Source of the DNA: Lautropia sp.
GTDB lineage: Bacteria; Pseudomonadota; Gammaproteobacteria; Burkholderiales; Burkholderiaceae_E
Direction: 5' to 3'
NCBI GenBank assembly: GCA_050249335.1
Contig: JBFWQR010000007.1
Span: 20,943 to 84,942 of the forward strand
Length of the DNA stretch: 64,000 bases
A program made the position numbers and the translations under genes. Shown here in pieces: positions 2,751 through 27,643 of the stretch. Each line of letters starts with the position of its first letter. Position 1 is the first letter of the stretch. The notes below the pieces were generated by a model. That model made no database searches, had not been told where the DNA came from, and saw only the letters and a list, made by a program, of their open reading frames with translations.

Positions 2751-4091
2751 TTATCGCGGCAGCACCTGATCCAGCGTCGTCGCCAGCAGATCGATCATCA
2801 GGTCGGTCTCGGCGCGCGCGATGTTGTACGGCGGCGAGACCAGCACGTGGTCGCCGTGGTAGCCGTCGACGGTGCCGGCCGACGGATAGCAGATCAGCCC
2901 GTTGGCGAACGCCTGGTCGCGAAAGCGCGCGGCGAGCTGCAGCGACGGATCGAACGGCGCCTTCGTCTCGCGGTCGCGGACCAGCTCGAACGCGGCGAAC
3001 AGGCCGCGGCCACGGATGTCGCCGACGTACGGATGCTCGGCGAACCGGCTGCGCAGCTGCGACAGCAGGTAGTCGCCCTCGCTCGCGCAGCGCTCGACCA
3101 GCCGGTCGCGCCGGAGGATCCGCTGGACCGCGAGCGCGGCGGCGCAGGCGGCCGTGTGGCCCGAGTAGGTGTGCACCGACGCCAGCGTGCCGAAGCGCTC
3201 GGCGATCGCCAGATAGATCGCCTCGGACAGGATCACCGCGCCGAGCGGCGCGTAGCCGCCGGCCAGGCCCTTGGCGGTGTACATCAGGTCCGGCTCGACG
3301 CCGTCGTACGCCAGCGCGCGCCAGCTGCCGCAGCGGCCGACGCCGCACATGACCTCGTCGGCGACCAGCAGCACGCCATAGCGGCTGCAGACCTCGCGAA
3401 CCTTCTGCGCATAGCCGGGCGGCGCCGGGACCGCGCCGCCGGTGGCGCCGACGACCGGCTCCATGAAGAATGCGGCGACCCGTTCCGGGCCGAGCCGCAG
3501 GATGGTCTGCTCGAGTTCCGCGGCCAGGTGGTCCGCGAGCGCCGCGACCGGCACGCCGGCCGGCGGCCGGTAGACATTGGCCGGCGAGACATGCTCGACC
3601 GGCAGCAGCGCCTGCTCGTACGGGCGCCGGCGCCCCGGGTGGCCGGACAGCGACAGCGCGCCGAAGGTGTAGCCGTGCCATGACTGACGCCGCGCGATGA
3701 AGCGCGTCCGGCCGGGCCGGCCGAGCGCGAGCTGATACTGCAGCGCCGCCTTCATCGCGGTATCCGCGGCCTCGGACCCGCTCGAGACGTAGGCGACCCG
3801 GCGCAGCGTGCCGCCGGCCTGCTCGGCAAGCTCGGTCGACAGCGCGTCGATCACCTCGCTCGAGAAGGTCGTCGTGTAGGCGAACTCGATCGCATCGTAC
3901 TGCGCCTTGATCGCCGCGATCACCTCGCGATGGCCATGGCCCAGGCAGAACAGCGCCGGGCCGCCGGAGCCGTCCAGATAGCGCTTGCCGGTTTCGTCGA
4001 CGACGAACGTGCCCTCGCCGCGGACCGCACGCGGCAGGCGCTGTCCCGGCAGGTGCTGATTGAGCCACAAGTGCGCGTCGCGCGGTTCCAT
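2751..4091 (-). CDS. Class III PLP-dependent aminotransferase
   Basis: RYLDGSGG, SGSEAA, SWHG, ADEVMCGVGRCG, PLP lysine in TAKGLAGGY; ATG 4091 preceded by GGGAGAGG. Confidence 0.92.
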   Translation of the reverse strand: MEPRDAHLWLNQHLPGQRLPRAVRGEGTFVVDETGKRYLDGSGGPALFCLGHGHREVIAAIKAQYDAIEFAYTTTFSSEVIDALSTELAEQAGGTLRRVAYVSSGSEAADTAMKAALQYQLALGRPGRTRFIARRQSWHGYTFGALSLSGHPGRRRPYEQALLPVEHVSPANVYRPPAGVPVAALADHLAAELEQTILRLGPERVAAFFMEPVVGATGGAVPAPPGYAQKVREVCSRYGVLLVADEVMCGVGRCGSWRALAYDGVEPDLMYTAKGLAGGYAPLGAVILSEAIYLAIAERFGTLASVHTYSGHTAACAAALAVQRILRRDRLVERCASEGDYLLSQLRSRFAEHPYVGDIRGRGLFAAFELVRDRETKAPFDPSLQLAARFRDQAFANGLICYPSAGTVDGYHGDHVLVSPPYNIARAETDLMIDLLATTLDQVLPR

Positions 4092-4110
4092 GATCTCGGC
4101 CTCTCCCGAT

Positions 4111-4653
4111 TCAATGCACACCCGGATCGACCCCGGCGTCGACCACGCGCTCGATGCCGACCAGATCCTTCAGGATCCCGACGACGATCTCGAGCACGAA
4201 CAGCGTCATGCCGACCGCGACCGACAGGAACGGCAGCGACAGCGGCGTCTCGAGCGGCGTCAGCGACACGATGCCCGAACGCGTGGTCGAGACGAACGCG
4301 CCCCAGCTGTGCTGGCACATCAGCGCGATCGCCCAGAGGCCGACGACCGAGACCGCGATCCGCAGCAGCCGGCGGACGCCCACGCCGAGGCGGTCGACCA
4401 GCATCTGCACCGAGACATGGCGGCCGGCGCGCAGCGTGTAGCCGACGCCGAGGTAGAAGGCCACGACCAGCAGATACTGCGCGTATTCGTCGACGAACAG
4501 GATCGGCCGGTTCAGCGCGTAGCGGGACACCGCGTTGACGGTGATCCCGAGCGCGATCAGCACGATCGCCGTGCAGGCGAGCGCCGCGGCGGCGGCCGAC
4601 AGCCAGCCGACGCCGCGGTCGAGCAGCAGGGTCCAGCGGGTCAGTCGCGGCAT
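4111..4653 (-). CDS. TRAP transporter small permease (DctQ-like)
   Basis: Four TM segments, SRYALNRP..VDEYA and GRHVSVQML motifs; alternative GTG start at 4668. Confidence 0.85.
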   Translation of the reverse strand: MPRLTRWTLLLDRGVGWLSAAAAALACTAIVLIALGITVNAVSRYALNRPILFVDEYAQYLLVVAFYLGVGYTLRAGRHVSVQMLVDRLGVGVRRLLRIAVSVVGLWAIALMCQHSWGAFVSTTRSGIVSLTPLETPLSLPFLSVAVGMTLFVLEIVVGILKDLVGIERVVDAGVDPGVH

Positions 4654-4676
4654 CGCGGGCTCCGTCACCGCCCGCG

Positions 4677-5699
4677 TCAACCCAGCCGCTGCAGCAGCTC
4701 GGCACTGCGCGCCGCCGGCTCGCCGCCGCCGTCGACGTAGTCCTTCAGCAGATGCGCCGTGCGCTTGCGCGCCTCGTCCCGGAAGCCGCCTTCCATCCGC
4801 GTGATGGTCGCGCCGTACTTGTTCTTCGCCTCGTCGAGGATCTTCTCGTTCAGCGCGCCGTGGTAGGCCAGCATCGGCTTGGTCGAGAACCACTCCTCGA
4901 ACAGCGCGGCGAGCTTCGGCCGGATATCCGCCGGCAGCGACTCCCAGCGCGCCTCGTCGACGAAGATCTCGTCGACGCCGAAGTACGGCTCGTACAGATC
5001 GGTGAACTTCAGCAGCTCCCAGAGCTTCTGCGCGTGCGCGCCGTTCAGCGAGGTCATCACCCCATCGATGGACTTGCGCTGCACCGCGACGTAGAGCTCG
5101 GAGTACGGCACCGTCGCCGGCGTGGCGCCCAGCGCCTGCGCGAGCGCCGCGGTGTTCTTGTCGTGCGCGCGGATCTTCAGGCCCTTCAGCGAATCGAAAT
5201 CCTTCAGCGGCACCGGCGTGTGGATCGCATTGCCCCAGCCGCCCGAATCGAGGAAGTACGCGAGCATCTTCGCCTTGTACTTCTGCGCGAAGTACGGGCG
5301 CACGATGTCCTCGTGCCAGCGCTCCATGAACGCCTGCTGCTTCTCGTACGGCACCGCGAACGGCACCAGCGGCAGGCCGAACCACGACTCGACCGACGTC
5401 ATGTAGGTCAGGCCGGTATGCGAGATCTCGGCCAGCTTGTCGGTGACGATCCGGATCCCGTCGCGATACTGGTACGGGTGCTGGCCGGCGACCAGCACGC
5501 GCAGCCGGAAGCGCCCTTCGGTCGCGGCCTCCGCCGCCTTGGCGAACTCGTTGAAGCGGTGGACCGTGATGTCCGACGGCGGGAACGGCGTGATCATCGT
5601 CCAGGTGATCCGCTGCTGGGCACGGACGACCGCCGGGCCGGAAATCGCCACCGCAGCGGCGCTGCCGAGCAGGGCACGGGTTGCTTGTCTACGTTTCAT
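4677..5699 (-). CDS. TRAP substrate-binding protein (DctP-like), Tat-type signal
   Basis: MKRRQATRALL signal; LKGLKIRAH with conserved Arg; ATPATVPYSELYVAVQRKSIDG. Confidence 0.9.
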   Translation of the reverse strand: MKRRQATRALLGSAAAVAISGPAVVRAQQRITWTMITPFPPSDITVHRFNEFAKAAEAATEGRFRLRVLVAGQHPYQYRDGIRIVTDKLAEISHTGLTYMTSVESWFGLPLVPFAVPYEKQQAFMERWHEDIVRPYFAQKYKAKMLAYFLDSGGWGNAIHTPVPLKDFDSLKGLKIRAHDKNTAALAQALGATPATVPYSELYVAVQRKSIDGVMTSLNGAHAQKLWELLKFTDLYEPYFGVDEIFVDEARWESLPADIRPKLAALFEEWFSTKPMLAYHGALNEKILDEAKNKYGATITRMEGGFRDEARKRTAHLLKDYVDGGGEPAARSAELLQRLG

Positions 5700-5729
5700 C
5701 GTCTTCCCCTCACAGGTTTCGTGGAGACA

Positions 5730-7046
5730 TCAGAACAGCTTCGCCGGCAGCCACAGCGCCAGCGTGGGAAAGTGGTACAGCAACGCGATCATCAGCAGCA
5801 GGATGAACCAGTACGGGATCGTCCCGATCACGACGTCCTTCAGCGGCCGGCCGCCGGAGACGCCCTGGATCACGAACAGGTTGAAGCCGACCGGCGGCGT
5901 CAGGTTCGCGAGCTCGACCAGCACGACCAGCACGACACCGAGCCAGACCGACGAGAAGCCGAGCGATGTCATCAGCGGATGAATGATCGGCAGCGTCAGG
6001 AACAGCATCGACGCCGGTTCCAGGAACATGCCGAGGAACAGATACATCACGACGATCAGCGCGAACAGCAGGCCCACCGGCAGATCGAGCGCGGTGACTG
6101 CGGCGGTCAGCTGCTGCGGCACGTCGAGCATCGACAGCGCCAGCGCGACGATCTGCGCGGTGACGATCAGCAGCACCAGGAAGCAGGTTGTCAGCAGCGC
6201 GTCCAGCGTCGATGCCTTGATCACCGCGAACGACAGCCTGCCGCCGGCCAGCCCGATCGCCGCCGCGAGGACGCAGCCGACCGCGGCGGCTTCGGTCGGC
6301 GTGGCGAGCCCCGAGTACATGCTGGCGATGATGCCGACGATCAGCAGCAATGCCGAGCCCATGCCGCGCAGCCCCTTGATCGCCTCGCCCAGCGAGAACG
6401 GCAACCGCGGACCTGCGGTGCCCGGCGCGACGACCGCGGCGACATAGATGTAGACCATGAACAGCAGCGCCAGCACGATGCCGGGGACGATGCCGGCGGC
6501 GAACAGCTGCCCGATCGATTCTCCGACGAAGACGCCGTAGGCGATGAACGTCACGCTCGGCGGGATCATGATGCCGAGGGTGCCGCCGGCGGCGAGCGAG
6601 CCCATCACCGAGCGCGACGGATAGCGGTGCTCGTCGATCTCGTACGGGATCGCGATCGACCCCAGCGACGCCGCGGTGGCCACGCTGGATCCGCACATCG
6701 CCGAGAACACCGCCGAGCTGAAGATGTTGGCGTGCAGCAGGCCGCCGGGAATCGAGCTGACCAGCGCCTTGCTGCCGTTGAAGATGCGCTCGGCCATGCC
6801 GATGTGCAGCACCAGATACCCCATCAGCACGAACAGCGGCAGCGAGATCAGCGAATAGTGATCGGCCAGCGCGTTGAACTGCAGCAGCCCGAGCATCGCC
6901 AGGCTGCTGCCGCTGCCGACCAGGACGATCATCGACACGATGCCGGTGACCGCCATCGCGATGCCGATCGGCATGCCGACGAAGATCAGCGTGAGCAGCA
7001 GCCCGAAGACCACCGCGGCGTTGCCCGCCAGGCCGAGGTCATCCAT
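5730..7046 (-). CDS. TRAP transporter large permease (DctM-like)
   Basis: GMPIGIAM, GGTLGIMIPPS, ATPTEAAAVG, LTPPVGFNLF motifs. Confidence 0.93.
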   Translation of the reverse strand: MDDLGLAGNAAVVFGLLLTLIFVGMPIGIAMAVTGIVSMIVLVGSGSSLAMLGLLQFNALADHYSLISLPLFVLMGYLVLHIGMAERIFNGSKALVSSIPGGLLHANIFSSAVFSAMCGSSVATAASLGSIAIPYEIDEHRYPSRSVMGSLAAGGTLGIMIPPSVTFIAYGVFVGESIGQLFAAGIVPGIVLALLFMVYIYVAAVVAPGTAGPRLPFSLGEAIKGLRGMGSALLLIVGIIASMYSGLATPTEAAAVGCVLAAAIGLAGGRLSFAVIKASTLDALLTTCFLVLLIVTAQIVALALSMLDVPQQLTAAVTALDLPVGLLFALIVVMYLFLGMFLEPASMLFLTLPIIHPLMTSLGFSSVWLGVVLVVLVELANLTPPVGFNLFVIQGVSGGRPLKDVVIGTIPYWFILLLMIALLYHFPTLALWLPAKLF

Positions 7047-7061: not shown

Positions 7062-8561
7062 TCAGCGCGCGCCGGCGCGCCGGACGACCTGCCCGGCGCG
7101 TGCCGCCGTGCGCCGGCCCTGCTCGACCGCGGCCCGGCCATTGACGAACACATGGACCAGCCCGCTCGGCGTCGCCCGCATGTCCTGCAGCGTCGTGTTG
7201 TCGCGGATCGCCTGCGGATCGAACACGACCAGGTCCGCGAACCAGCCGTTGCGCAGCTCGCCGCGACGGTCGAGCCGCATCCGCCGCGCCGGCAGCGACG
7301 TCAGCCGCCGGATGCCTTCCGGCAGCGCCATCATGCCTTCCTCGCGTACGTAGTGGCCGAGAAAGCGCGCGGTCCAGCCGAAGCCGGTCGGCGCGAAGCG
7401 GATGTCCTTGGTCGGCCCGTCGTCGTTCAGCGTGATCGCGTCCGAGATCACCGCACAGTCCGGCTGCGACAGCAGCAGCCGGATGTCCCGGTCCGGCGAG
7501 ATCTTGCCGACCCAGGTCGCATCGACCATGTGCTCGCCCTCCTCCAGCAGGATGTCGAAGATCGCGTCGTGCGGATCGATGGCGCGGATCCGGCCGATCT
7601 CGGCGAAGTCGAGCCCGACCAGGTCCGGGTTGGCCTGCGACCGCGTCAGCACCAGCTCGGACCAGCGCTTCTGCCCGACCAGCTTCCACTGCGGCAGCGG
7701 ATTGACCTTCAGCCGCTCGCGCGTCGCCGGATCCGACAGGCGCCGGACCATCGCCGCCGGCCCGCCTTCGTAGGCCCACTTCGGCAGCACGGTGTAGAGG
7801 AAGGTCGGCCCCCACTCGTGCGGGATCACGTCGTAGCCGACGTCGATGCCGAGGCGGCGGGTCCAGTCGATCATCTCGAGGATGTGCTCGGATGCGTGCG
7901 GCGGCGCGCCGACCTTCGGCACCAGATGCGACAGCTGCAGCCGCGCTCCGGCGATCCGCGCCGTCGCGAGCGCCTCGCCGACACCCATCTCGTACTGCCA
8001 GTCGCGATTGCGCACGTGCGACGCGTAGACGGCGTCGAACTCGGCCGCGACTTCGGCAATTCCGACCAGCTCGCGCAGGTCGGAATGGAAGCCGGGGTTG
8101 TACTCGAGCCCGGAGCTGACGCCGATCGCGCCCTCGTCGAGCGCCTGGCGGATCGCGTCGGCCATGTGGCGGACCTCCTCCTCGCCGGCGACCCGTGGCG
8201 TGCTGCCGAGAATGTTGAGCCGCACCGTGTTGTGGCCGACGTAGGCCCCGACGTTCAGGCCGGGCTGGTTCTGCTGCAGCCGGTCGAGGTAATCGCCGAA
8301 GCCGGTCCACGAGAACGACTGGCCGGGCAGCCGGCCGACCATGAATTTCTCGAGCAGCTCCTGCTGCAGGCACGGCGCGCACGAGAAGCCGCAGTTGCCG
8401 ATGATCTCGGTCGTCACGCCCTGCATCAGCAGGCTGTAGCCGTCGGCGTCCGCCATCAGCGTCGCGTCCGAGTGCGTATGGATGTCGATGAAGCCCGGCG
8501 TGACCGCGAGGCCGGTGCAGTCGATGATCCGCTCGGCGTCGTCGCCGAGCGCGCCGACCGC
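7062..8561 (-). CDS. N-acyl-D-amino-acid deacylase (D-aminoacylase) lacking its N-terminal ~30 residues; C-terminal half of an in-frame fusion with PilQ
   Basis: PGFIDIHTHSD, GVTTEIIGNCGFS, ASHVRN, LSHL, ISDA, ADLVVFDP; begins abruptly at VGALGDDAERIIDCTG with no start codon or RBS of its own. Confidence 0.88.
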   Translation of the reverse strand, partial: AVGALGDDAERIIDCTGLAVTPGFIDIHTHSDATLMADADGYSLLMQGVTTEIIGNCGFSCAPCLQQELLEKFMVGRLPGQSFSWTGFGDYLDRLQQNQPGLNVGAYVGHNTVRLNILGSTPRVAGEEEVRHMADAIRQALDEGAIGVSSGLEYNPGFHSDLRELVGIAEVAAEFDAVYASHVRNRDWQYEMGVGEALATARIAGARLQLSHLVPKVGAPPHASEHILEMIDWTRRLGIDVGYDVIPHEWGPTFLYTVLPKWAYEGGPAAMVRRLSDPATRERLKVNPLPQWKLVGQKRWSELVLTRSQANPDLVGLDFAEIGRIRAIDPHDAIFDILLEEGEHMVDATWVGKISPDRDIRLLLSQPDCAVISDAITLNDDGPTKDIRFAPTGFGWTARFLGHYVREEGMMALPEGIRRLTSLPARRMRLDRRGELRNGWFADLVVFDPQAIRDNTTLQDMRATPSGLVHVFVNGRAAVEQGRRTAARAGQVVRRAGAR

Positions 8562-9749
8562 GTCGGCCTTCTGGTAGTTCAGCGTGAAGGTCTCGGTGCG
8601 CAGCTGCTCGATGTCGGCGATCTGCTGCTTGGCCTCGAGGTCGAGCTTCTCCTTGGTTGCCAGCTCCTCGCGCGGCGCGATCAGGATGACGTTGCCGTTC
8701 TTGCGCATGTCGAGGCCGCGCGACTGCAGGATGATGTCGAGCGCCTGATCCCACGGCACGTCCTTCAGCCGCAGCGTCAGGCTGCCGGCGACGGTATCGC
8801 TGGTGACGATGTTCAGGTTGGTGAAGTCGGCGATCACCTGCAGCAGCGCGCGGACGTCGACGTTCTGGAAGTTCAGCGACAGCCGCTCGCCGCGATAGCC
8901 CTGACGGGTACCCTGCGTCAGCTTGTTCGGGTCTTCCTTGATCTGCTTGACCTCGACGACGAACTGGGTGTCGCTCTGGTAGGCGTTGTGCTCCCAGAGG
9001 CCCTGCGGCTCGATCACCATCCGCGCATTGTCGCCCTGCTGGAACGCGCGCACCTGACGCACCGGCGTGCCGAAGTCGGCGACGTCGAGCCGGCGCTTCA
9101 GGTTCTCCGGCAGCCGGGCGCGCTGGAAGTCGACGACGATGGTCTGGCCCTGCTGCTTGATGTCGACGCCGGTCTGCGAATCGGACAGCTCGACGACGAT
9201 CCGGCCCTCGCCGTCCTTGCCGCGGCGGAAATCGATGTCGCGCAGCGCATGCGCCAGCGACGGATCGCCCTTGGCGAAGTTGTAGGCCGCCGGCAGCGCC
9301 GCGACCGGCGCCGCGGTCGCGGCCGGGACCGCCTGGTCGAGCGCGACGACGATCGTGTCGCCCTCGATCGTCGACTGGAACTGCAGCGGCCGCTTCAGGT
9401 TCAGCACGACGCGCGAGCGGCCGGTCCCCTGCACGACGTTGACGCTGTGGACATCGCCGTTGAGCAGCTCGATCAGGTTGCGGCCGAGCTTGCTGTCGGT
9501 ATCGCGGAAATCCATCGCGACCCGCGGCGGATTGTTGATCGTGAAGCTCGGCGGCGCGTCGGTCGGCGGCTTGGCCATCTGGATCCGCAGCACGGTCGCC
9601 GAGCCCTGCTGGGCACTGGTGATCGACTCGATCGAATTGCTCTGCGCCGCGGCCAGCAGAGGCAGCGCGCCGGCAATGCAGACCAGCAGCGCGGCACAGC
9701 GATTCAGGATGGGGCGCATGACGTCTCTCGTCTCGGGGCTTGTGTTCAT
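8562..9749 (-). pseudogene. pilQ: Type IV pilus secretin PilQ, N-terminal ~396 aa only (signal peptide, two AMIN domains, N0, start of N1); secretin domain absent
   Basis: ATGA overlap with pilP stop; FTINNPPRVAMDF, LSLNFQNVDVRALLQVIADFT, LRLKDVPWDQALD, TETFTLNYQKA then sequence switches to D-aminoacylase. Confidence 0.9.
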
Positions 9750-10291
9750 CGCTTGACGGCCGCTTCCTGGAGGGCGAGCGCGGTCTCGCGCTCGACCCAG
9801 TCGCCGGCGGCGTCCTGGACCAGTTCCTTCACGTTGATCTCGGTCTCCGAGATCTTCATGATCCGGCCGAAGTTCTGGCCGAGGTAGTTGCCGACGCGGA
9901 CCTGGAAGATCACCTTGTCGGCCTCGAGCAGCGCGACCGGCCCCGTGCTCGGCCGCGACAGGTGGCCGACCAGCCGGATCGCGTCGAGCGGGTACGCCTC
10001 GAGCGGCTCGCGCCGCCGGTTCATGTCCGGCGTCAGGCCACCCTTGTTGCGATCGGCGAGCCGCGCCAGCGCGACCTGCAGCTTGGCATTGGAGAACGGG
10101 TCGATATCGGCGCGCGGCTCGTAGCGGAACGGCGCGAACCGCTTCGGCTCGGGGATCCGGCCGGTCTGGCGCGGCGCGGTGGCCCGGGTCTCGTCCATCC
10201 AGGCCTGGAGCTCGGAGACGTCGCCCGAGCATCCGGCGACCGCCAGCAGAGCGGCCAGCACGCCAGCGAGATTGAGCATGCGGATCTTCAT
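9746..10291 (-). CDS. pilP: Type IV pilus lipoprotein PilP
   Basis: Lipobox LAVAGC; RRREPLEAYPLDAIRLVG; VGNYLGQNFGRI; position in pilMNOP. Confidence 0.92.
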   Translation of the reverse strand: MKIRMLNLAGVLAALLAVAGCSGDVSELQAWMDETRATAPRQTGRIPEPKRFAPFRYEPRADIDPFSNAKLQVALARLADRNKGGLTPDMNRRREPLEAYPLDAIRLVGHLSRPSTGPVALLEADKVIFQVRVGNYLGQNFGRIMKISETEINVKELVQDAAGDWVERETALALQEAAVKR

Positions 10292-10947
10292 CGAGTGGCA
10301 CCCGGCTTCTTGGCCACCGCCGCGCGTTGCGCGTCGATCTCTTCCTTGTCGAGATAGCGGAAGGTCTTGGCGGTCGCATCCATCTCGAGCTGATTGGTCT
10401 TCGGCTGCCGCACGATCGAGAGGTTGTTCAGCGTCACGATCCGCGGCAGGTTGGCGAGGTCGCTGCTGAACGAGCCGAGGTCGTGATAGTTGCCGACCAC
10501 CTTGACCGCGATCGGCAGCTCGGCGTAGTACTCCTTGATCTGCACCTGCCCCGGCTTGAACAGCTGCAGCTGCGCGCCGCGGCCGACGCCGGCCTGGTTG
10601 ATGTCGGTCAGCAGCGCGTCCATCTCGGCGCGGCTCGGCAGCTGCTTCTCGAGCACGCCGACATACTGCTCGACCAGGACTTTCTGCTTGCGCAGGTCGT
10701 CGAGATTGACCGCCTTGCCGACCTTCTGGGTGTACTCGGCGCGCAGCTGCTGCTCCTGCTGTTCGCCGGCGTCGAGCTCCTCGAGCAGGCCGCGCCAGTA
10801 GAGCAGCCAGCCGGCCAGCAGCAGCGCCACCAGAATGCCGAACAGCAGCAGTCCCTTCGGCAGACCCGGCCACAGGCCCGGGTGGCGCCCCTGCAGCCCC
10901 TCGAACTGACGCGAGACCGCGCCGAGATCGAACGACAGATTTTTCAT
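10288..10947 (-). CDS. pilO: Type IV pilus assembly protein PilO
   Basis: KQLPSRAEMDALLTDINQAG, YYAELPI, LPRIVTL. Confidence 0.93.
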   Translation of the reverse strand: MKNLSFDLGAVSRQFEGLQGRHPGLWPGLPKGLLLFGILVALLLAGWLLYWRGLLEELDAGEQQEQQLRAEYTQKVGKAVNLDDLRKQKVLVEQYVGVLEKQLPSRAEMDALLTDINQAGVGRGAQLQLFKPGQVQIKEYYAELPIAVKVVGNYHDLGSFSSDLANLPRIVTLNNLSIVRQPKTNQLEMDATAKTFRYLDKEEIDAQRAAVAKKPGATR

Positions 10948-11678
10948 CGCGCGCTCCCCTGGCCGGCGACCGCGGCGGCGGCGGCGGAGTAGACCAGCGC
11001 GGCGGTGCGGCTGTCGGCGCGCGGCGCGTCCGGCCCGGCCCGCTGCACATCCAGGTCGGCCCGCTTCGGCTGGCCCGGCTGCGCGCCGCCCTGCCCTTCG
11101 ACGTTCCGCCGCTTGATCAGCACGTTCATCTTGAACTCGTAGGCACGCCGCACTTCGCCGGCCTTGCTGGTCGGGATCGGCTCCTTGATCGCGACCTCCT
11201 TGATCTCGTCGAGCTGCGGCCGCTCCATCCAGTCGCTTCGGTCGCTGAGGTTGCGCAGCAGCTCGGCGACCCGCTCGTTCGACTGGGCGAAGCCGTTCAG
11301 CGAGACCCGCATGTCGACCTGGTTCAGCTTCTCGATGAACACGCCCTCGGGCATCAGCTTGACCAGTTCGTCGAACAGGTGCACCGGCACGGTCCGGTCG
11401 CTCTGCAGGTCCTCGACCGCTTTCTGGCGCGCCTTGAGCGCGGCGATCGCCTCCTCGAGCGTCTTGATCTCGGCGATCTCGACATCGAGTTTCTGGATCG
11501 CCGACTTGATGTACTGGTTGCGGCTCTCCTGGTACTCGATCCGCTGATTGATGACGAAACCGCCGGCGAACGCGAGCACGGCGCCCGCGATCGCGGTGAT
11601 CACCATGGTCGAGACGAATTCGCGCTTGCGGCGTTCCCGCCGCATCTCGCGATGCGGCAGCAGATTGATCCGGATCAC
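10944..11678 (-). CDS. pilN: Type IV pilus assembly protein PilN
   Basis: MIRINLLPHRE, GFAQSNERVAELLRNL. Confidence 0.93.
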   Translation of the reverse strand: MIRINLLPHREMRRERRKREFVSTMVITAIAGAVLAFAGGFVINQRIEYQESRNQYIKSAIQKLDVEIAEIKTLEEAIAALKARQKAVEDLQSDRTVPVHLFDELVKLMPEGVFIEKLNQVDMRVSLNGFAQSNERVAELLRNLSDRSDWMERPQLDEIKEVAIKEPIPTSKAGEVRRAYEFKMNVLIKRRNVEGQGGAQPGQPKRADLDVQRAGPDAPRADSRTAALVYSAAAAAVAGQGSAR

Positions 11679-12757
11679 GTGTCGAACCTCCGCATCGCCA
11701 GGCCGCAGCCGACCAGCAGTGCCGGGGCGTCAAGGCGCATCTGCCGCTCGCGCACGCCGGACGCGACCTCCATGCCCTGGAACGGGCTCAGCACCTCGGC
11801 CGGGACGCCGGAACGCTCGCCGACCGCTTCGGCGAGCCCCGGCGTGACCGCGCCGCCGCCGGCCAGGAAGATCCGATCGACGCGGGTGTACGGCGTCGAC
11901 GTGAAGAAGAACTGCAGCGAACGGCTGATGTCGATCGCGCCCTGCTCGACGAACGGCGTCAGCAGGTCCTTCTGATAGTTGTCGGGCAGGTCGCCGGACC
12001 GCTTCTTCAACTCCGCCTCTTCCGGCGTCAGGCCGTAGAGCCGGACGATGTCCTGGGTCAGCTGGTTGCCGCCGAACGCCTGTTCGCGTTCGAACACCGT
12101 CTGGCCGTTGAGCACGACGGTCAGACTGGTCGACATCTGCCCGATGTCGAACACCGCGATGATCAATCCCTCGCCGTGGTTCGGCAGATAGCTGACGACG
12201 TGGTCGATCACGCTGCGGGCGGCATACGGCTCGACGTCGATGACGGTCGGCTTGAGCCCGGCCATCTCGGCGACCACGACCCGATCGTCGACCTTCTCCT
12301 TGCGCGACGCGGCGAGCAGCACGTCGACATCGTCGGGCGAGGTCGCCGACGGCCCGAGGATTTGGAAATCGAGATTGACCTCCTCGATCGCGAACGGGAT
12401 GTACTGGCTGGCCTCGGACTCGACCTGCATTTCATAGTCGTCGTCGCGCATGCCGGCCGGCAGCATGATCCGTTTGGTGATCACCGACGACGAGGGCAGT
12501 GCCAGTGCGGCCGACTTGGTCTTGGTGCCGGCCTTGCGCAGCGCGCGCAGCAGTGCGTCGGCGACCTGCTCGGGCTTCTCGACGTTGCCGTCGACGATCG
12601 CGCCGCGCTCGATCGGCTCGATGGCGTAGCGTTCCAGCCTCATCGAGGACTGCCGGCCGGGCGCCAATTCGACCACCTTGACGCTCGAAGCACTAAAATC
12701 GACACCCAGCAACGCCGGTGAACCGCGCGAAAACAGCGAAGGTAGCTTTAGCGCCAC
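11675..12757 (-). CDS. pilM: Type IV pilus assembly protein PilM (actin-like)
   Basis: LLGVDFSASSVKVVEL, AVFDIG, AFGGNQLT, LAGGGA; GTG start. Confidence 0.95.
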   Translation of the reverse strand: MALKLPSLFSRGSPALLGVDFSASSVKVVELAPGRQSSMRLERYAIEPIERGAIVDGNVEKPEQVADALLRALRKAGTKTKSAALALPSSSVITKRIMLPAGMRDDDYEMQVESEASQYIPFAIEEVNLDFQILGPSATSPDDVDVLLAASRKEKVDDRVVVAEMAGLKPTVIDVEPYAARSVIDHVVSYLPNHGEGLIIAVFDIGQMSTSLTVVLNGQTVFEREQAFGGNQLTQDIVRLYGLTPEEAELKKRSGDLPDNYQKDLLTPFVEQGAIDISRSLQFFFTSTPYTRVDRIFLAGGGAVTPGLAEAVGERSGVPAEVLSPFQGMEVASGVRERQMRLDAPALLVGCGLAMRRFDT

Positions 12758-16334: not shown

Positions 16335-17627
16335 ATGAGCAGCCACGACGCGGCCGCGATCGCCGGCCCCTGGCTGAGCCGCAACGCCGATGGCCGGCTG
16401 CTCGCCGACGGCCTCGACCTCGAGCAGCTGGCGCAGCGCTTCGGCACGCCGCTCTACCTCTATTCGCGCGCGCAGATCGAAGCGACCTGGGAACAGTTCC
16501 GGCTCGCGATCAAGGGACACCATGCCCGCGTCTGCTATGCATTGAAGGCCAACAGCAATCTCGCGATCGTCGAGCTGATGAAATCGCTCGGCTGCGGGTT
16601 CGACATCGTCTCGGGCGGTGAGCTCGAGCGCGTCGTCGCCGCCGGCGGCGATCCCGGCGACGTGCTGTTCTCCGGCGTCGGCAAGACGGTGGCCGAACTG
16701 ACGCGCGCGCTGGAGCTCGGCGTGCGCTGCTTCAACGTCGAATCGCTGGCCGAGCTCGATCGGCTCGACGAGATCGCCGGCCGCGTCGGCAAGCGCGCAC
16801 CGGTCTCGCTGCGGATCAACCCCGACGTCGACGCGGCAACCCATCCGTACATCTCGACCGGCCTCAAGGAGAACAAGTTCGGCATCGCCTACGGTGACGC
16901 GGCCGAGGCCTACCTCCGGGCGGCGGCGCTGCCGAATCTGGAAGTGGTCGGCATCGATTGCCACATCGGCTCGCAGATCGTCGAGGTCGCGCCGTTCCTC
17001 GCGGCGCTCGACCGGGTGCTGGCGCTGGTCGACCAGCTGGCCCGCGCCGGCATCACGCTGCGCCATCTCGACCTCGGCGGCGGCCTCGGCATCCGCTACG
17101 ACGACGAGCAGCCGCCGGCGCCGGCCGAGCTGATGCAGGCGCTGTTCGCCCGCATCGAGCAATGGAGCAGCGGCGAGCCGCCGGAGGTGCTGTTCGAGTT
17201 CGGCCGTGCGCTGGTCGGCAATGCCGGCGTGCTGCTGACGCGGGTCGAACTGCTGAAGCACAATGGCGACCGCCGGTTCGCCGTCGTCGATGCGGCGATG
17301 AACGATCTGCTGCGGCCGTCGCTCTATCAGGCCTACCACCGGATCGAACCGGTGCAGGTCCGCGACGGCGCCGGCGCCAGCTACGACATCGTCGGCCCGG
17401 TCTGCGAATCGGGGGACTGGCTCGGTCGCGACCGCAAGCTCGTGCTCGCGCCCGGCGACCTGCTGGCGGTCCTTTCGGCCGGCGCCTACGGCATGGCGAT
17501 GAGCTCGAACTACAACACCCGGCCGCGCGCCGCCGAAGTACTGATCGACCGTGGCACGCCGGTGCTGATTCGCGAACGCGAAACGGTCGCGGCGCTGTTC
17601 GCCGGCGAGCGGCGGCTGCCGGGTTGA
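16335..17627 (+). CDS. lysA: Diaminopimelate decarboxylase
   Basis: CYALKANSN, FDIVSGGEL, CHIGSQ, LDLGGGLG, GPVCESGD, SSNYNTRPR. Confidence 0.95.
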   Translation: MSSHDAAAIAGPWLSRNADGRLLADGLDLEQLAQRFGTPLYLYSRAQIEATWEQFRLAIKGHHARVCYALKANSNLAIVELMKSLGCGFDIVSGGELERVVAAGGDPGDVLFSGVGKTVAELTRALELGVRCFNVESLAELDRLDEIAGRVGKRAPVSLRINPDVDAATHPYISTGLKENKFGIAYGDAAEAYLRAAALPNLEVVGIDCHIGSQIVEVAPFLAALDRVLALVDQLARAGITLRHLDLGGGLGIRYDDEQPPAPAELMQALFARIEQWSSGEPPEVLFEFGRALVGNAGVLLTRVELLKHNGDRRFAVVDAAMNDLLRPSLYQAYHRIEPVQVRDGAGASYDIVGPVCESGDWLGRDRKLVLAPGDLLAVLSAGAYGMAMSSNYNTRPRAAEVLIDRGTPVLIRERETVAALFAGERRLPG

Positions 17628-26306: not shown

Positions 26307-27643
26307 CCCACATCGTTCACCGCAGTCTCAAGAATCGCCCACCCGTCGCCCGCCGTGCCGAAGGCGTCTACATCTACGACGAAACCGGCAAGCAGTACCT
26401 GGACGCCTGCGGCGGTGCCGCGGTCTCCTGCCTCGGTCACGGGCATCCGGACGTCGTCGAGGCCATGACCAGCCAGCTCCGGACGCTCGCCTACGCCCAT
26501 ACCGGCTTCTTCACCTCCGACGTGGCGGAAGAGCTCGCCGACCAGCTGGTCGCGAATGCGCCGAGCGGCCTCGACCACGTCTATTTCGTCTCCGGAGGCT
26601 CCGAGGCGATGGAAGCCGCGCTCAAGCTCGCGCGGCAGTACTTCGTGGAGATCGGGCAGCCGCAACGCACCACGTTCATCGCGCGCCGCCAGAGCTACCA
26701 CGGCAACACGCTCGGTGCGCTGGCGGTGGGCGGCAACGAAGCGCGGCGCCGGCAGTTCGCGCCGCTGCTGATCGAGACCGGCCGGGTTTCCGCGTGCTTC
26801 GAGTATCGCGGTCGCGCGGACGGCGAATCCCAGGCGCAGTACACGCAGCGGCTGCTCCGGGAGCTGGAAGACAAGGTGCTCGAGATCGGGCCGGACAAGG
26901 TCATCGGCTTCTGCGCCGAGACGGTCGTCGGGGCGACGACCGGCGCCGTGCCGCCGACTCCGGGCTACCTGAAGGGCGTGCGCGAGATCTGCGATCGCTA
27001 CGGCATGCTCTACATCGCCGACGAAGTCATGTGCGGCATGGGGCGCACCGGCACGCTGCACGCCGTCGAGCAGGAAGACGTCGTGCCCGACCTGCTCGCG
27101 ATCGCCAAGGGGCTGGGCGGCGGCTACCAGCCGATCGGCGCGCTGCTGATCGCCGGCCGGATGGTCGACTCGTTGCGGCGCGGCAGCGGACTCTTCCAGC
27201 ACGGCCACACCTACCTCGGGCATCCGACCGCGTGCGCCGCGGCGCTGGCGGTCCAGAAGGTCATCCAGCGCGACCGGCTGCTGCCGCAGGTGCGCGCGCG
27301 CGGCGACTACCTGCGCAACGCGCTCGAACGCCGATTCGGCGAGCATCCCCATGTCGGCGACATCCGCGGCCGCGGCCTCTTCCTCGGCGTCGAGCTGGTG
27401 CAGGACCGCGCGAGCAAGAAGCCGTTCGAGCCCGGCCTGCAGCTGCACGCCCGCCTGAAGGCGCGCGCGATGGCCAATGGCCTGATGATCTACCCGATGG
27501 GCGGCACCATCGACGGCCAGGCCGGCGATCATTTCCTGATCGCGCCGCCGTTCATCGTCACGCCGGAGCAGCTCGACGAGGCCGTCGAGCGGCTGACGCG
27601 TTCGCTCGACGAGGCGCTGCAGTCGCTGCCGGCGCATGCCTGA
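26303..27643 (+). CDS. Class III PLP-dependent aminotransferase (paralog of 2751..4091)
   Basis: YLDACGG, SGGSEA, SYHGNT, ADEVMCGMGRTG, IAKGLGGGY; GTGA overlap. Confidence 0.93.
   Translation: MTHIVHRSLKNRPPVARRAEGVYIYDETGKQYLDACGGAAVSCLGHGHPDVVEAMTSQLRTLAYAHTGFFTSDVAEELADQLVANAPSGLDHVYFVSGGSEAMEAALKLARQYFVEIGQPQRTTFIARRQSYHGNTLGALAVGGNEARRRQFAPLLIETGRVSACFEYRGRADGESQAQYTQRLLRELEDKVLEIGPDKVIGFCAETVVGATTGAVPPTPGYLKGVREICDRYGMLYIADEVMCGMGRTGTLHAVEQEDVVPDLLAIAKGLGGGYQPIGALLIAGRMVDSLRRGSGLFQHGHTYLGHPTACAAALAVQKVIQRDRLLPQVRARGDYLRNALERRFGEHPHVGDIRGRGLFLGVELVQDRASKKPFEPGLQLHARLKARAMANGLMIYPMGGTIDGQAGDHFLIAPPFIVTPEQLDEAVERLTRSLDEALQSLPAHA

Follow-up and report, generated by a model that had tools for sequence, protein, structure and literature searches.

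An apparent in-frame fusion of pilQ to a D-aminoacylase gene in a Lautropia draft genome is very probably a chimeric contig

A 64,000-nt stretch of a draft genome of Lautropia sp. (NCBI GenBank assembly GCA_050249335.1), hereafter the window, contains one long reading frame that begins as the pilus secretin PilQ and ends as a D-aminoacylase. This raises the question of whether the two genes have really been fused or whether the contig joins two loci that are separate in the cell. The window corresponds to positions 20943-84942 of contig JBFWQR010000007.1 (C7), and the draft (G000) comprises 309 contigs and 7.66 Mb and is 98% complete.

The frame lies on the minus strand at 7062-9749 and its translation is unbroken over 895 aa. 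A preliminary description made from the window had reported an uninterrupted PilQ N-terminus plus D-aminoacylase, and translation, Pfam and the NCBIfam model TIGR02515 (PilQ) all bore this out. The order of parts is a signal peptide, two AMIN domains and the STN/N0 domain of PilQ, followed by a D-aminoacylase without its first 33 residues (about 30 had been estimated; the exact number came from comparison with an intact 531-aa protein, see below). Pfam detected the two AMIN domains (1e-41), STN at residues 313-359 and a GspD-like N0, and from residue 407 Amidohydro_3 and Amidohydro_1. The protein switches after ...NYQKADA to VGALGDDAERIIDCTG, which can also be written as ...NYQKADAVGAL followed by GDDAERIIDCTG (window 8548-8558). 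All of the D-aminoacylase ligand motifs named in the preliminary description were present, i.e. HTH (HxH), GNCG, SHVR, SHL and SD. The reported ATGA overlap with the stop codon of pilP is also real (9749-9746); gene callers nonetheless choose the ATG at 9719 (MRPILNR...) and so obtain the 885-aa protein P0123.

The PilQ part is far from complete. TIGR02515 matched the fused frame at model positions 1-113 of 428 only, with 156.5 bits against a cut-off of 284.35, and a Pfam search of the frame found neither PF03958 (Secretin_N) nor PF00263 (secretin). A PilQ secretin in the sense of TIGR02515 has the N1 and C-terminal secretin domains and a score above the cut-off; the fused frame has none of these and, unlike known PilQ, contains the first 390 residues only. 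The coordinates of the two gene parts and of the genes on either side are listed in Table 1. The pilMNOP genes at 9746-12757 on the minus strand are the usual upstream portion of a pilMNOPQ operon. The genes at 2751-7046, on the same strand, are the true downstream neighbours of the acylase gene.

Table 1. Features around the join in the window. L035 and L036 are the pil and acylase loci of the sister assembly; window position = 19720 - L035 position and = 9204 - L036 position.
Feature	Position in window	Strand	Remarks
3' part of D-aminoacylase (N-acyl-D-amino-acid deacylase) gene	7062-8558	-	Residues 34-531 of 531; true 5' end on C133
Join point, 11-nt word GTCGGCGCGCT (gene strand; VGAL)	8548-8558		Three-way base comparisons C7/C84/C133 and C7/L035/L036
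5' part of pilQ	8548-9719	-	Residues 1-390 of 738; alternative upstream ATG at 9749; 3' part on C84
pilM	11675-12757	-	ORF and Pfam on 100%-identical sister locus L035
pilN	10944-11678	-	ORF and Pfam on sister locus L035
pilO	10288-10947	-	ORF and Pfam on sister locus L035
pilP	9746-10291	-	ORF and Pfam on sister locus L035
dctM	5730-7046	-	ORF and Pfam on 100%-identical sister locus L036
dctP	4677-5699	-	ORF and Pfam on sister locus L036
dctQ	4111-4653	-	ORF and Pfam on sister locus L036
Class-III aminotransferase	2751-4091	-	ORF and Pfam on sister locus L036

The missing halves of both genes were found on other contigs of the same draft. When the whole genome was searched with TIGR02515, model positions 84-428 were matched (349 bits, above the cut-off) at the extreme end of contig C84. 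This end translates as KLDLEAKQQIADIEQLRTETFTLNYQKADAVGAL-LSDEKQRVLSKRGS... and continues through the secretin domain, so that it carries the N1 and secretin parts of pilQ. Downstream of it, C84 has a lipoprotein-like ORF (the Big_1 gene) and then the shikimate kinase gene aroK. The preliminary description had remarked that neither a secretin domain nor aroK/aroB follows the fusion in the window; the secretin domain and aroK are thus located on C84. BLASTN showed that the last 103 nt of this contig (31494-31596) equal window 8548-8650 with one mismatch. Similarly, positions 1-221 of contig C133 equal window 8338-8558 with four mismatches, and beyond this overlap C133 runs into the true N-terminus of the acylase (...FDLILRNGTVYDGTGVPGSVCDVGVRDDRIADVGAL-GDDAERIIDCTG...), with a LacI-type regulator gene upstream of it. 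Compared base by base, C7 tracks C133 up to 8558 and tracks C84 from 8548. Both true continuations are therefore present elsewhere in the assembly and overlap C7 across the join. Such a distribution, with 3' pilQ-aroKB and the 5' acylase on other contigs, is what the preliminary description had said would make the fusion an assembly artefact, and we found pilQ 3'-Big_1-aroK on C84 and the acylase 5' end on C133.

The two overlaps meet in the 11-nt word GTCGGCGCGCT, which is common to the wild-type pilQ and the wild-type acylase gene; VGAL occurs in both proteins. This word has 171 occurrences in the genome, and further imperfect homology surrounds it at the join (GCCGAC[GCG]GTCGGCGCGCT). A microhomology of 11 nt is also what real illegitimate recombination would leave, which counts against an artefact.

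We then counted the junctions. In an exact-word search of the assembly, three junctions occurred once each, namely that of the fusion and those of wild-type pilQ and of the wild-type acylase gene; the reciprocal junction was absent. Sampled 31-mers from the two arms of C7, which span 28 and 54 kb, were all single-copy. As the arms are single-copy and each junction occurs once, one haploid genome cannot hold all three junctions. Either the cell lacks at least one of them, therefore, or the cells sequenced were a mixed population. A large duplication, in which the fusion could coexist with both wild-type genes, was rejected because the arms are single-copy over these distances.

A second assembly of the same strain, NCBI GCA_050186415.1, has both genes intact. 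Its protein P0012 (738 aa) equals the PilQ part of the fusion up to ...VGA(L) and thereafter continues like C84, and its protein P0002 (531 aa) is identical to the acylase part of the fusion at 498 of 498 residues and has the N-terminus of C133. The two genes lie on different contigs. On JBFWYM010000007.1 (63,317 nt) the order is pilM-N-O-P-Q(738)-Big_1-aroK-aroB-Y1_Tnp, and on JBFWYM010000074.1 (30,265 nt) it is LacI-like-acylase(531)-dctM-dctP-dctQ-aminotransferase. The DNA of these loci was 100.000% identical to C7 over 11,172 nt of the right arm and 11,497 nt of the left arm; past the junction, one locus goes on as C84 (99.97%) and the other as C133. Both wild-type junctions are thus contiguous in this independent assembly, and the join is absent from the two sister contigs examined. 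Because the missing halves lie at the ends of C84 and C133 and both genes are intact in a second assembly of the same strain, we conclude that the PilQ-D-aminoacylase fusion is very probably an assembly artefact of the chimeric contig C7 and not a gene fusion. Judged from the two assemblies, the organism has an ordinary PilQ secretin of 738 aa and an ordinary D-aminoacylase of 531 aa, which is cytoplasmic. The preliminary description had considered a chimeric join or a large deletion the most parsimonious explanation, and the overlaps with C84 and C133 together with the intact sister genes agree with this.

Relatives gave the same picture. The PilQ-acylase fusion was found in none of the 30 relatives searched. 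In these genomes the PilQ match always ended near residue 417, within frames of 710-840 aa. In the relative G003, pilQ and the acylase orthologue (77% identity) lie on the same strand of one contig, and the orthologue has its own 534-aa frame 292 kb from pilQ. G003 is colinear from the right arm of C7 straight into C84, and downstream of its acylase orthologue lies the TRAP block that is also found in the left arm. Synteny with G003 is thus broken at the join and restored by the alternative neighbours, as far as the pilQ side is concerned; the C133 side is not conserved there.

A fixed and functional fusion, in which an exported, peptidoglycan-tethered D-amino-acid deacylase has replaced PilQ, is effectively excluded. 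The open frame, the intact signal peptide and AMIN domains, and the retained metal-ligand motifs would fit such a protein. However, both this assembly and the sister assembly contain wild-type junctions, which contradict it. The acylase part has also lost 33 N-terminal residues which, in the full-length acylase P0002, align to the solved D-aminoacylase 1M7J; the alignment of the intact protein starts at residue 2. In addition, the architecture was absent from the 30 relatives. In a protein search with residues 300-520 of the fusion, none of the 120 best among 8000 homologues combined AMIN/STN with Amidohydro domains. Each of these 120 was either a PilQ (AMIN, STN, Secretin_N and Secretin; ~690-790 aa) or an acylase (Amidohydro_3; ~527-576 aa). 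PilQ homologues with named sources indicated Lautropia-like Burkholderiales. On these domain searches, a natural AMIN/STN plus amidohydrolase architecture does not appear to occur in the independent genomes covered. The exported, peptidoglycan-tethered deacylase that had been envisaged in case the fusion was real thus found no counterpart in the 30 relatives or among the 120 best of 8000 homologues.

Searches for the junction itself added little. The fusion protein P0123 is recorded solely from an 84,991-nt contig, which is C7. The junction 46-mer CCAGAAGGCCGACGCGGTCGGCGCGCTCGGCGACGACGCCGAGCGG was not found in genome_contigs or metagenome_contigs, in scans that may exclude the window's own record. 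The wild-type pilQ junction, run as a control, was also unmatched in metagenome_contigs, so that the negative result for the fusion is uninformative there. We therefore regard the negatives for the 46-mer in these public collections as weak.

A real rearrangement in part of the sequenced population was also considered. A microhomology-mediated deletion or translocation would have placed acylase codon ~34 directly after pilQ codon ~390 in some cells; the assembler would have taken that path, and the wild-type molecules would have left the ends of C84 and C133. We consider both the rearrangement and this account of the contigs improbable, although several observations speak for them. The 11-nt microhomology and the further imperfect homology at the junction are as in illegitimate recombination. 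The same-strand, single-contig arrangement of the two genes in G003 means that a simple deletion would give the observed orientation, and a graph with k=127 normally requires real sequence spanning a junction. However, the same data contain the wild-type junctions, and the sister assembly of the identical strain is wild type only at both loci. The contigs that are syntenic to the intervening interval of G003 (C84, C61, C251, C117, C27, C52, C32 and others) were all assembled normally in the present draft. Furthermore, there is no reciprocal junction, and the end of the left arm falls on a k-mer graph boundary, as described below. If such a rearrangement were true, it would represent a loss-of-function mutant and not an evolved gene. 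In those cells the periplasm-targeted, peptidoglycan-binding N-terminus of PilQ would sit on a truncated D-aminoacylase, the TRAP operon would be placed under the pil promoter, and type IV pili would be abolished.

The mismatches between C7 and the two contig tips were inspected as well. The four mismatches of C133 are non-conservative changes within its first 94 nt. The G003 orthologue sides with C7 at all four sites, and the sister assembly sides with C7 at these four and at the single mismatch of C84. Since the variants are confined to the tips and disagree with the sister assembly, they are errors of the contig tips and not marks of a second haplotype. A second strain or haplotype bearing the wild type was therefore rejected: its variants would be found only in contig tips and are contradicted by the sister assembly, those of C133 also by G003.

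The geometry of the contig ends gave some indication of how the join arose. Error-rich tips occur throughout this assembly. Among the 618 contig ends, 295 overlap the end of another contig, by a median of 194 nt and at a median identity of ~99%. In 85 of 133 imperfect contig-end overlaps, an exact run of 126 nt gives way to variants, a hallmark of a de Bruijn graph assembly with k~127. The overlap of C7 with C133 is built in the same way, with an exact run of 127 nt (8432-8558) that ends at the junction. The left arm of C7 thus ends where a graph unitig would end. A join of pre-existing ends leads one to expect such a position, whereas recombination or independent chimeric reads would have hit it only by an unlikely coincidence. 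On the side of pilQ there is no clean 126/127 boundary, as C84 and C7 agree over 35 nt, differ at one and agree again over 67 nt. K-mer geometry was therefore rejected as an account of that side of the join, and this counts against an artefact.

We propose that the left arm of C7 (to 8558) derives from the LacI-like - D-aminoacylase - dctMPQ - aminotransferase locus, with C133 as its true neighbour, and the right arm (from 8548) from the pilMNOPQ - Big_1 - aroK - aroB locus, with C84 as its true neighbour. The arms would have been joined during assembly at the 11-nt word present in both genes. By chance the join keeps both strand and frame and so gives an 885/895-aa ORF that is probably encoded by no cell. 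The assembler presumably made the join, either by short-overlap gap closing or local assembly, or by following a few chimeric reads. We take the gap closer and scaffolder of SPAdes to accept overlaps of ~10 nt and the local assembler of MEGAHIT to start at k=11. A step of either type could join at an 11-mer that is present 171 times. A plain graph join at k=127 needs more than an 11-nt overlap, so that an extra step or chimeric reads have to be assumed; this counts against an artefact.

Chimeric reads constitute a variant of the artefact. Template-switch chimeras arise at short homologies; if some formed at this microhomology in an amplification step or in library PCR, the assembler might have followed them. 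We assign to this variant a minor, still appreciable, share of the probability of an artefact. The error-rich contig tips suggest modest depth or quality, so that a few chimeric reads could win locally. This variant leaves unexplained, however, the distance of exactly one k-mer between the junction and the point where the tip of C133 diverges.

In several respects C7 resembles the chimeric contigs of short-read de Bruijn-graph drafts and MAGs. Unrelated loci meet at a short word that they share, their true continuations both form the ends of other contigs, and the synteny seen in relatives and in an independent assembly is lost exactly at the join. It differs in that the 11-nt overlap is far below the assembly k (~127), and in that strand and frame agree across the join by chance (~1 in 6), so that the join mimics a multidomain gene. 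The C7 join was the only place in the assembly where two contig ends cross on one interior point. It thus does not reflect a recurrent habit of the assembler, which likewise counts against an artefact. End-to-interior overlaps of C86 (~17064-17333) and C57 (38736-38837) were considered as similar joins and rejected, as they are short repeats and not crossings.

The value of this case lies mainly in quality control. P0123, the 885-aa "PilQ/amidohydrolase" that the deposited contig yields, is already in public protein collections, where it could seed false claims of a domain architecture or of a "novel exported deacylase", and it would wrongly imply an organism without a pilus secretin. The convergence of two contig ends on one interior point of a third contig offers a screen for mis-joins that needs no reads.

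The two true loci resemble known systems. P0012 has the two AMIN domains, N0/STN, Secretin_N and Secretin of PilQ (TIGR02515; 6VE2 and 9X0W from Pseudomonas aeruginosa, 4AV2 from Neisseria). Its matches to solved structures were 9X0W (E 2.4e-148) and 6VE2 (E 6e-146), both annotated as fimbrial assembly protein PilQ. As is known for PilQ, the true gene lies in pilMNOPQ with aroK-aroB downstream; it differs from the known setting by a 380-aa gene with a Big_1 domain between pilQ and aroK. The acylase is a metallohydrolase of the D-aminoacylase family, and its closest solved structure was the D-aminoacylase 1M7J (E 4.5e-67). The true acylase gene keeps HxH, GNCG, SHVR, SHL and SD as in the D-aminoacylases 1M7J and 1RJP (Alcaligenes faecalis) and the N-acyl-D-glutamate deacylase 3GIP, and its product is ~35-50 residues longer than the solved enzymes. 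It sits in an operon with a TRAP transporter (dctMPQ), a class-III aminotransferase and a LacI-type regulator. This gene content suggests that the operon may serve to break down an N-acylated (D-)amino acid or a similar compound.

Contig ends in the draft assembly (G000, GCA_050249335.1) were found to be frequently redundant. Across the assembly, about half of them share a stretch of roughly 100-300 nt with a neighbouring contig. Identity within these overlaps is 96-100% (median ~99%), and they usually consist of 126 nt of exact match and then a variant tail. At both loci checked against the sister assembly of the same strain, GCA_050186415.1, the alleles in the variant tail were errors. Therefore, many breaks between contigs could be closed by trimming the tips.

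Two further interior points at which a pair of contig ends lands, in C86 and C57, were considered as chimeric crossings like the pilQ-acylase join. Both were rejected, as they behave as short repeats, the second copy of each being split over contig ends.

The assembly comprises 7.66 Mb, more than any congener sampled (2.7-6.9 Mb), and its estimated contamination is 2.6%. Bin contamination or merged strains would be worth checking.

The usual adjacency of pilQ and aroK is broken here by a gene whose product has a bacterial Ig-like (Big_1) domain and a lipoprotein-like N-terminus. In its interior, C84 differs from the sister assembly by only two mismatches. Both fall within the Y1 transposase gene, which suggests that this element is multi-copy and was collapsed in assembly.

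Two candidate starts of pilQ lie within 9719-9749 of the window, and gene callers chose the one at 9719 in both assemblies.

Features discussed (C, contigs of G000; L035, pil-aro locus of the sister assembly, contig JBFWYM010000007.1)
Feature	Position	Remark
Example tip	C133:1-94	
Example tip	C84:31529	
C252/C278 ends land	C86:17064-17333	Short repeat, ~270 nt
C108/C258 ends land	C57:38736-38837	Short repeat, 102 nt
Big_1 protein, 380 aa	L035:12275-13417 (= C84)	Between pilQ and aroK
Y1 transposase gene, IS200/IS605-type	L035:15252-15941 (= C84 ~26,800-27,500)	Directly 3' of aroB
pilQ start candidate 1	Window, ATG at 9749	Overlaps pilP stop (ATGA)
pilQ start candidate 2	Window, ATG at 9719	MRPILNR..., directly before signal peptide
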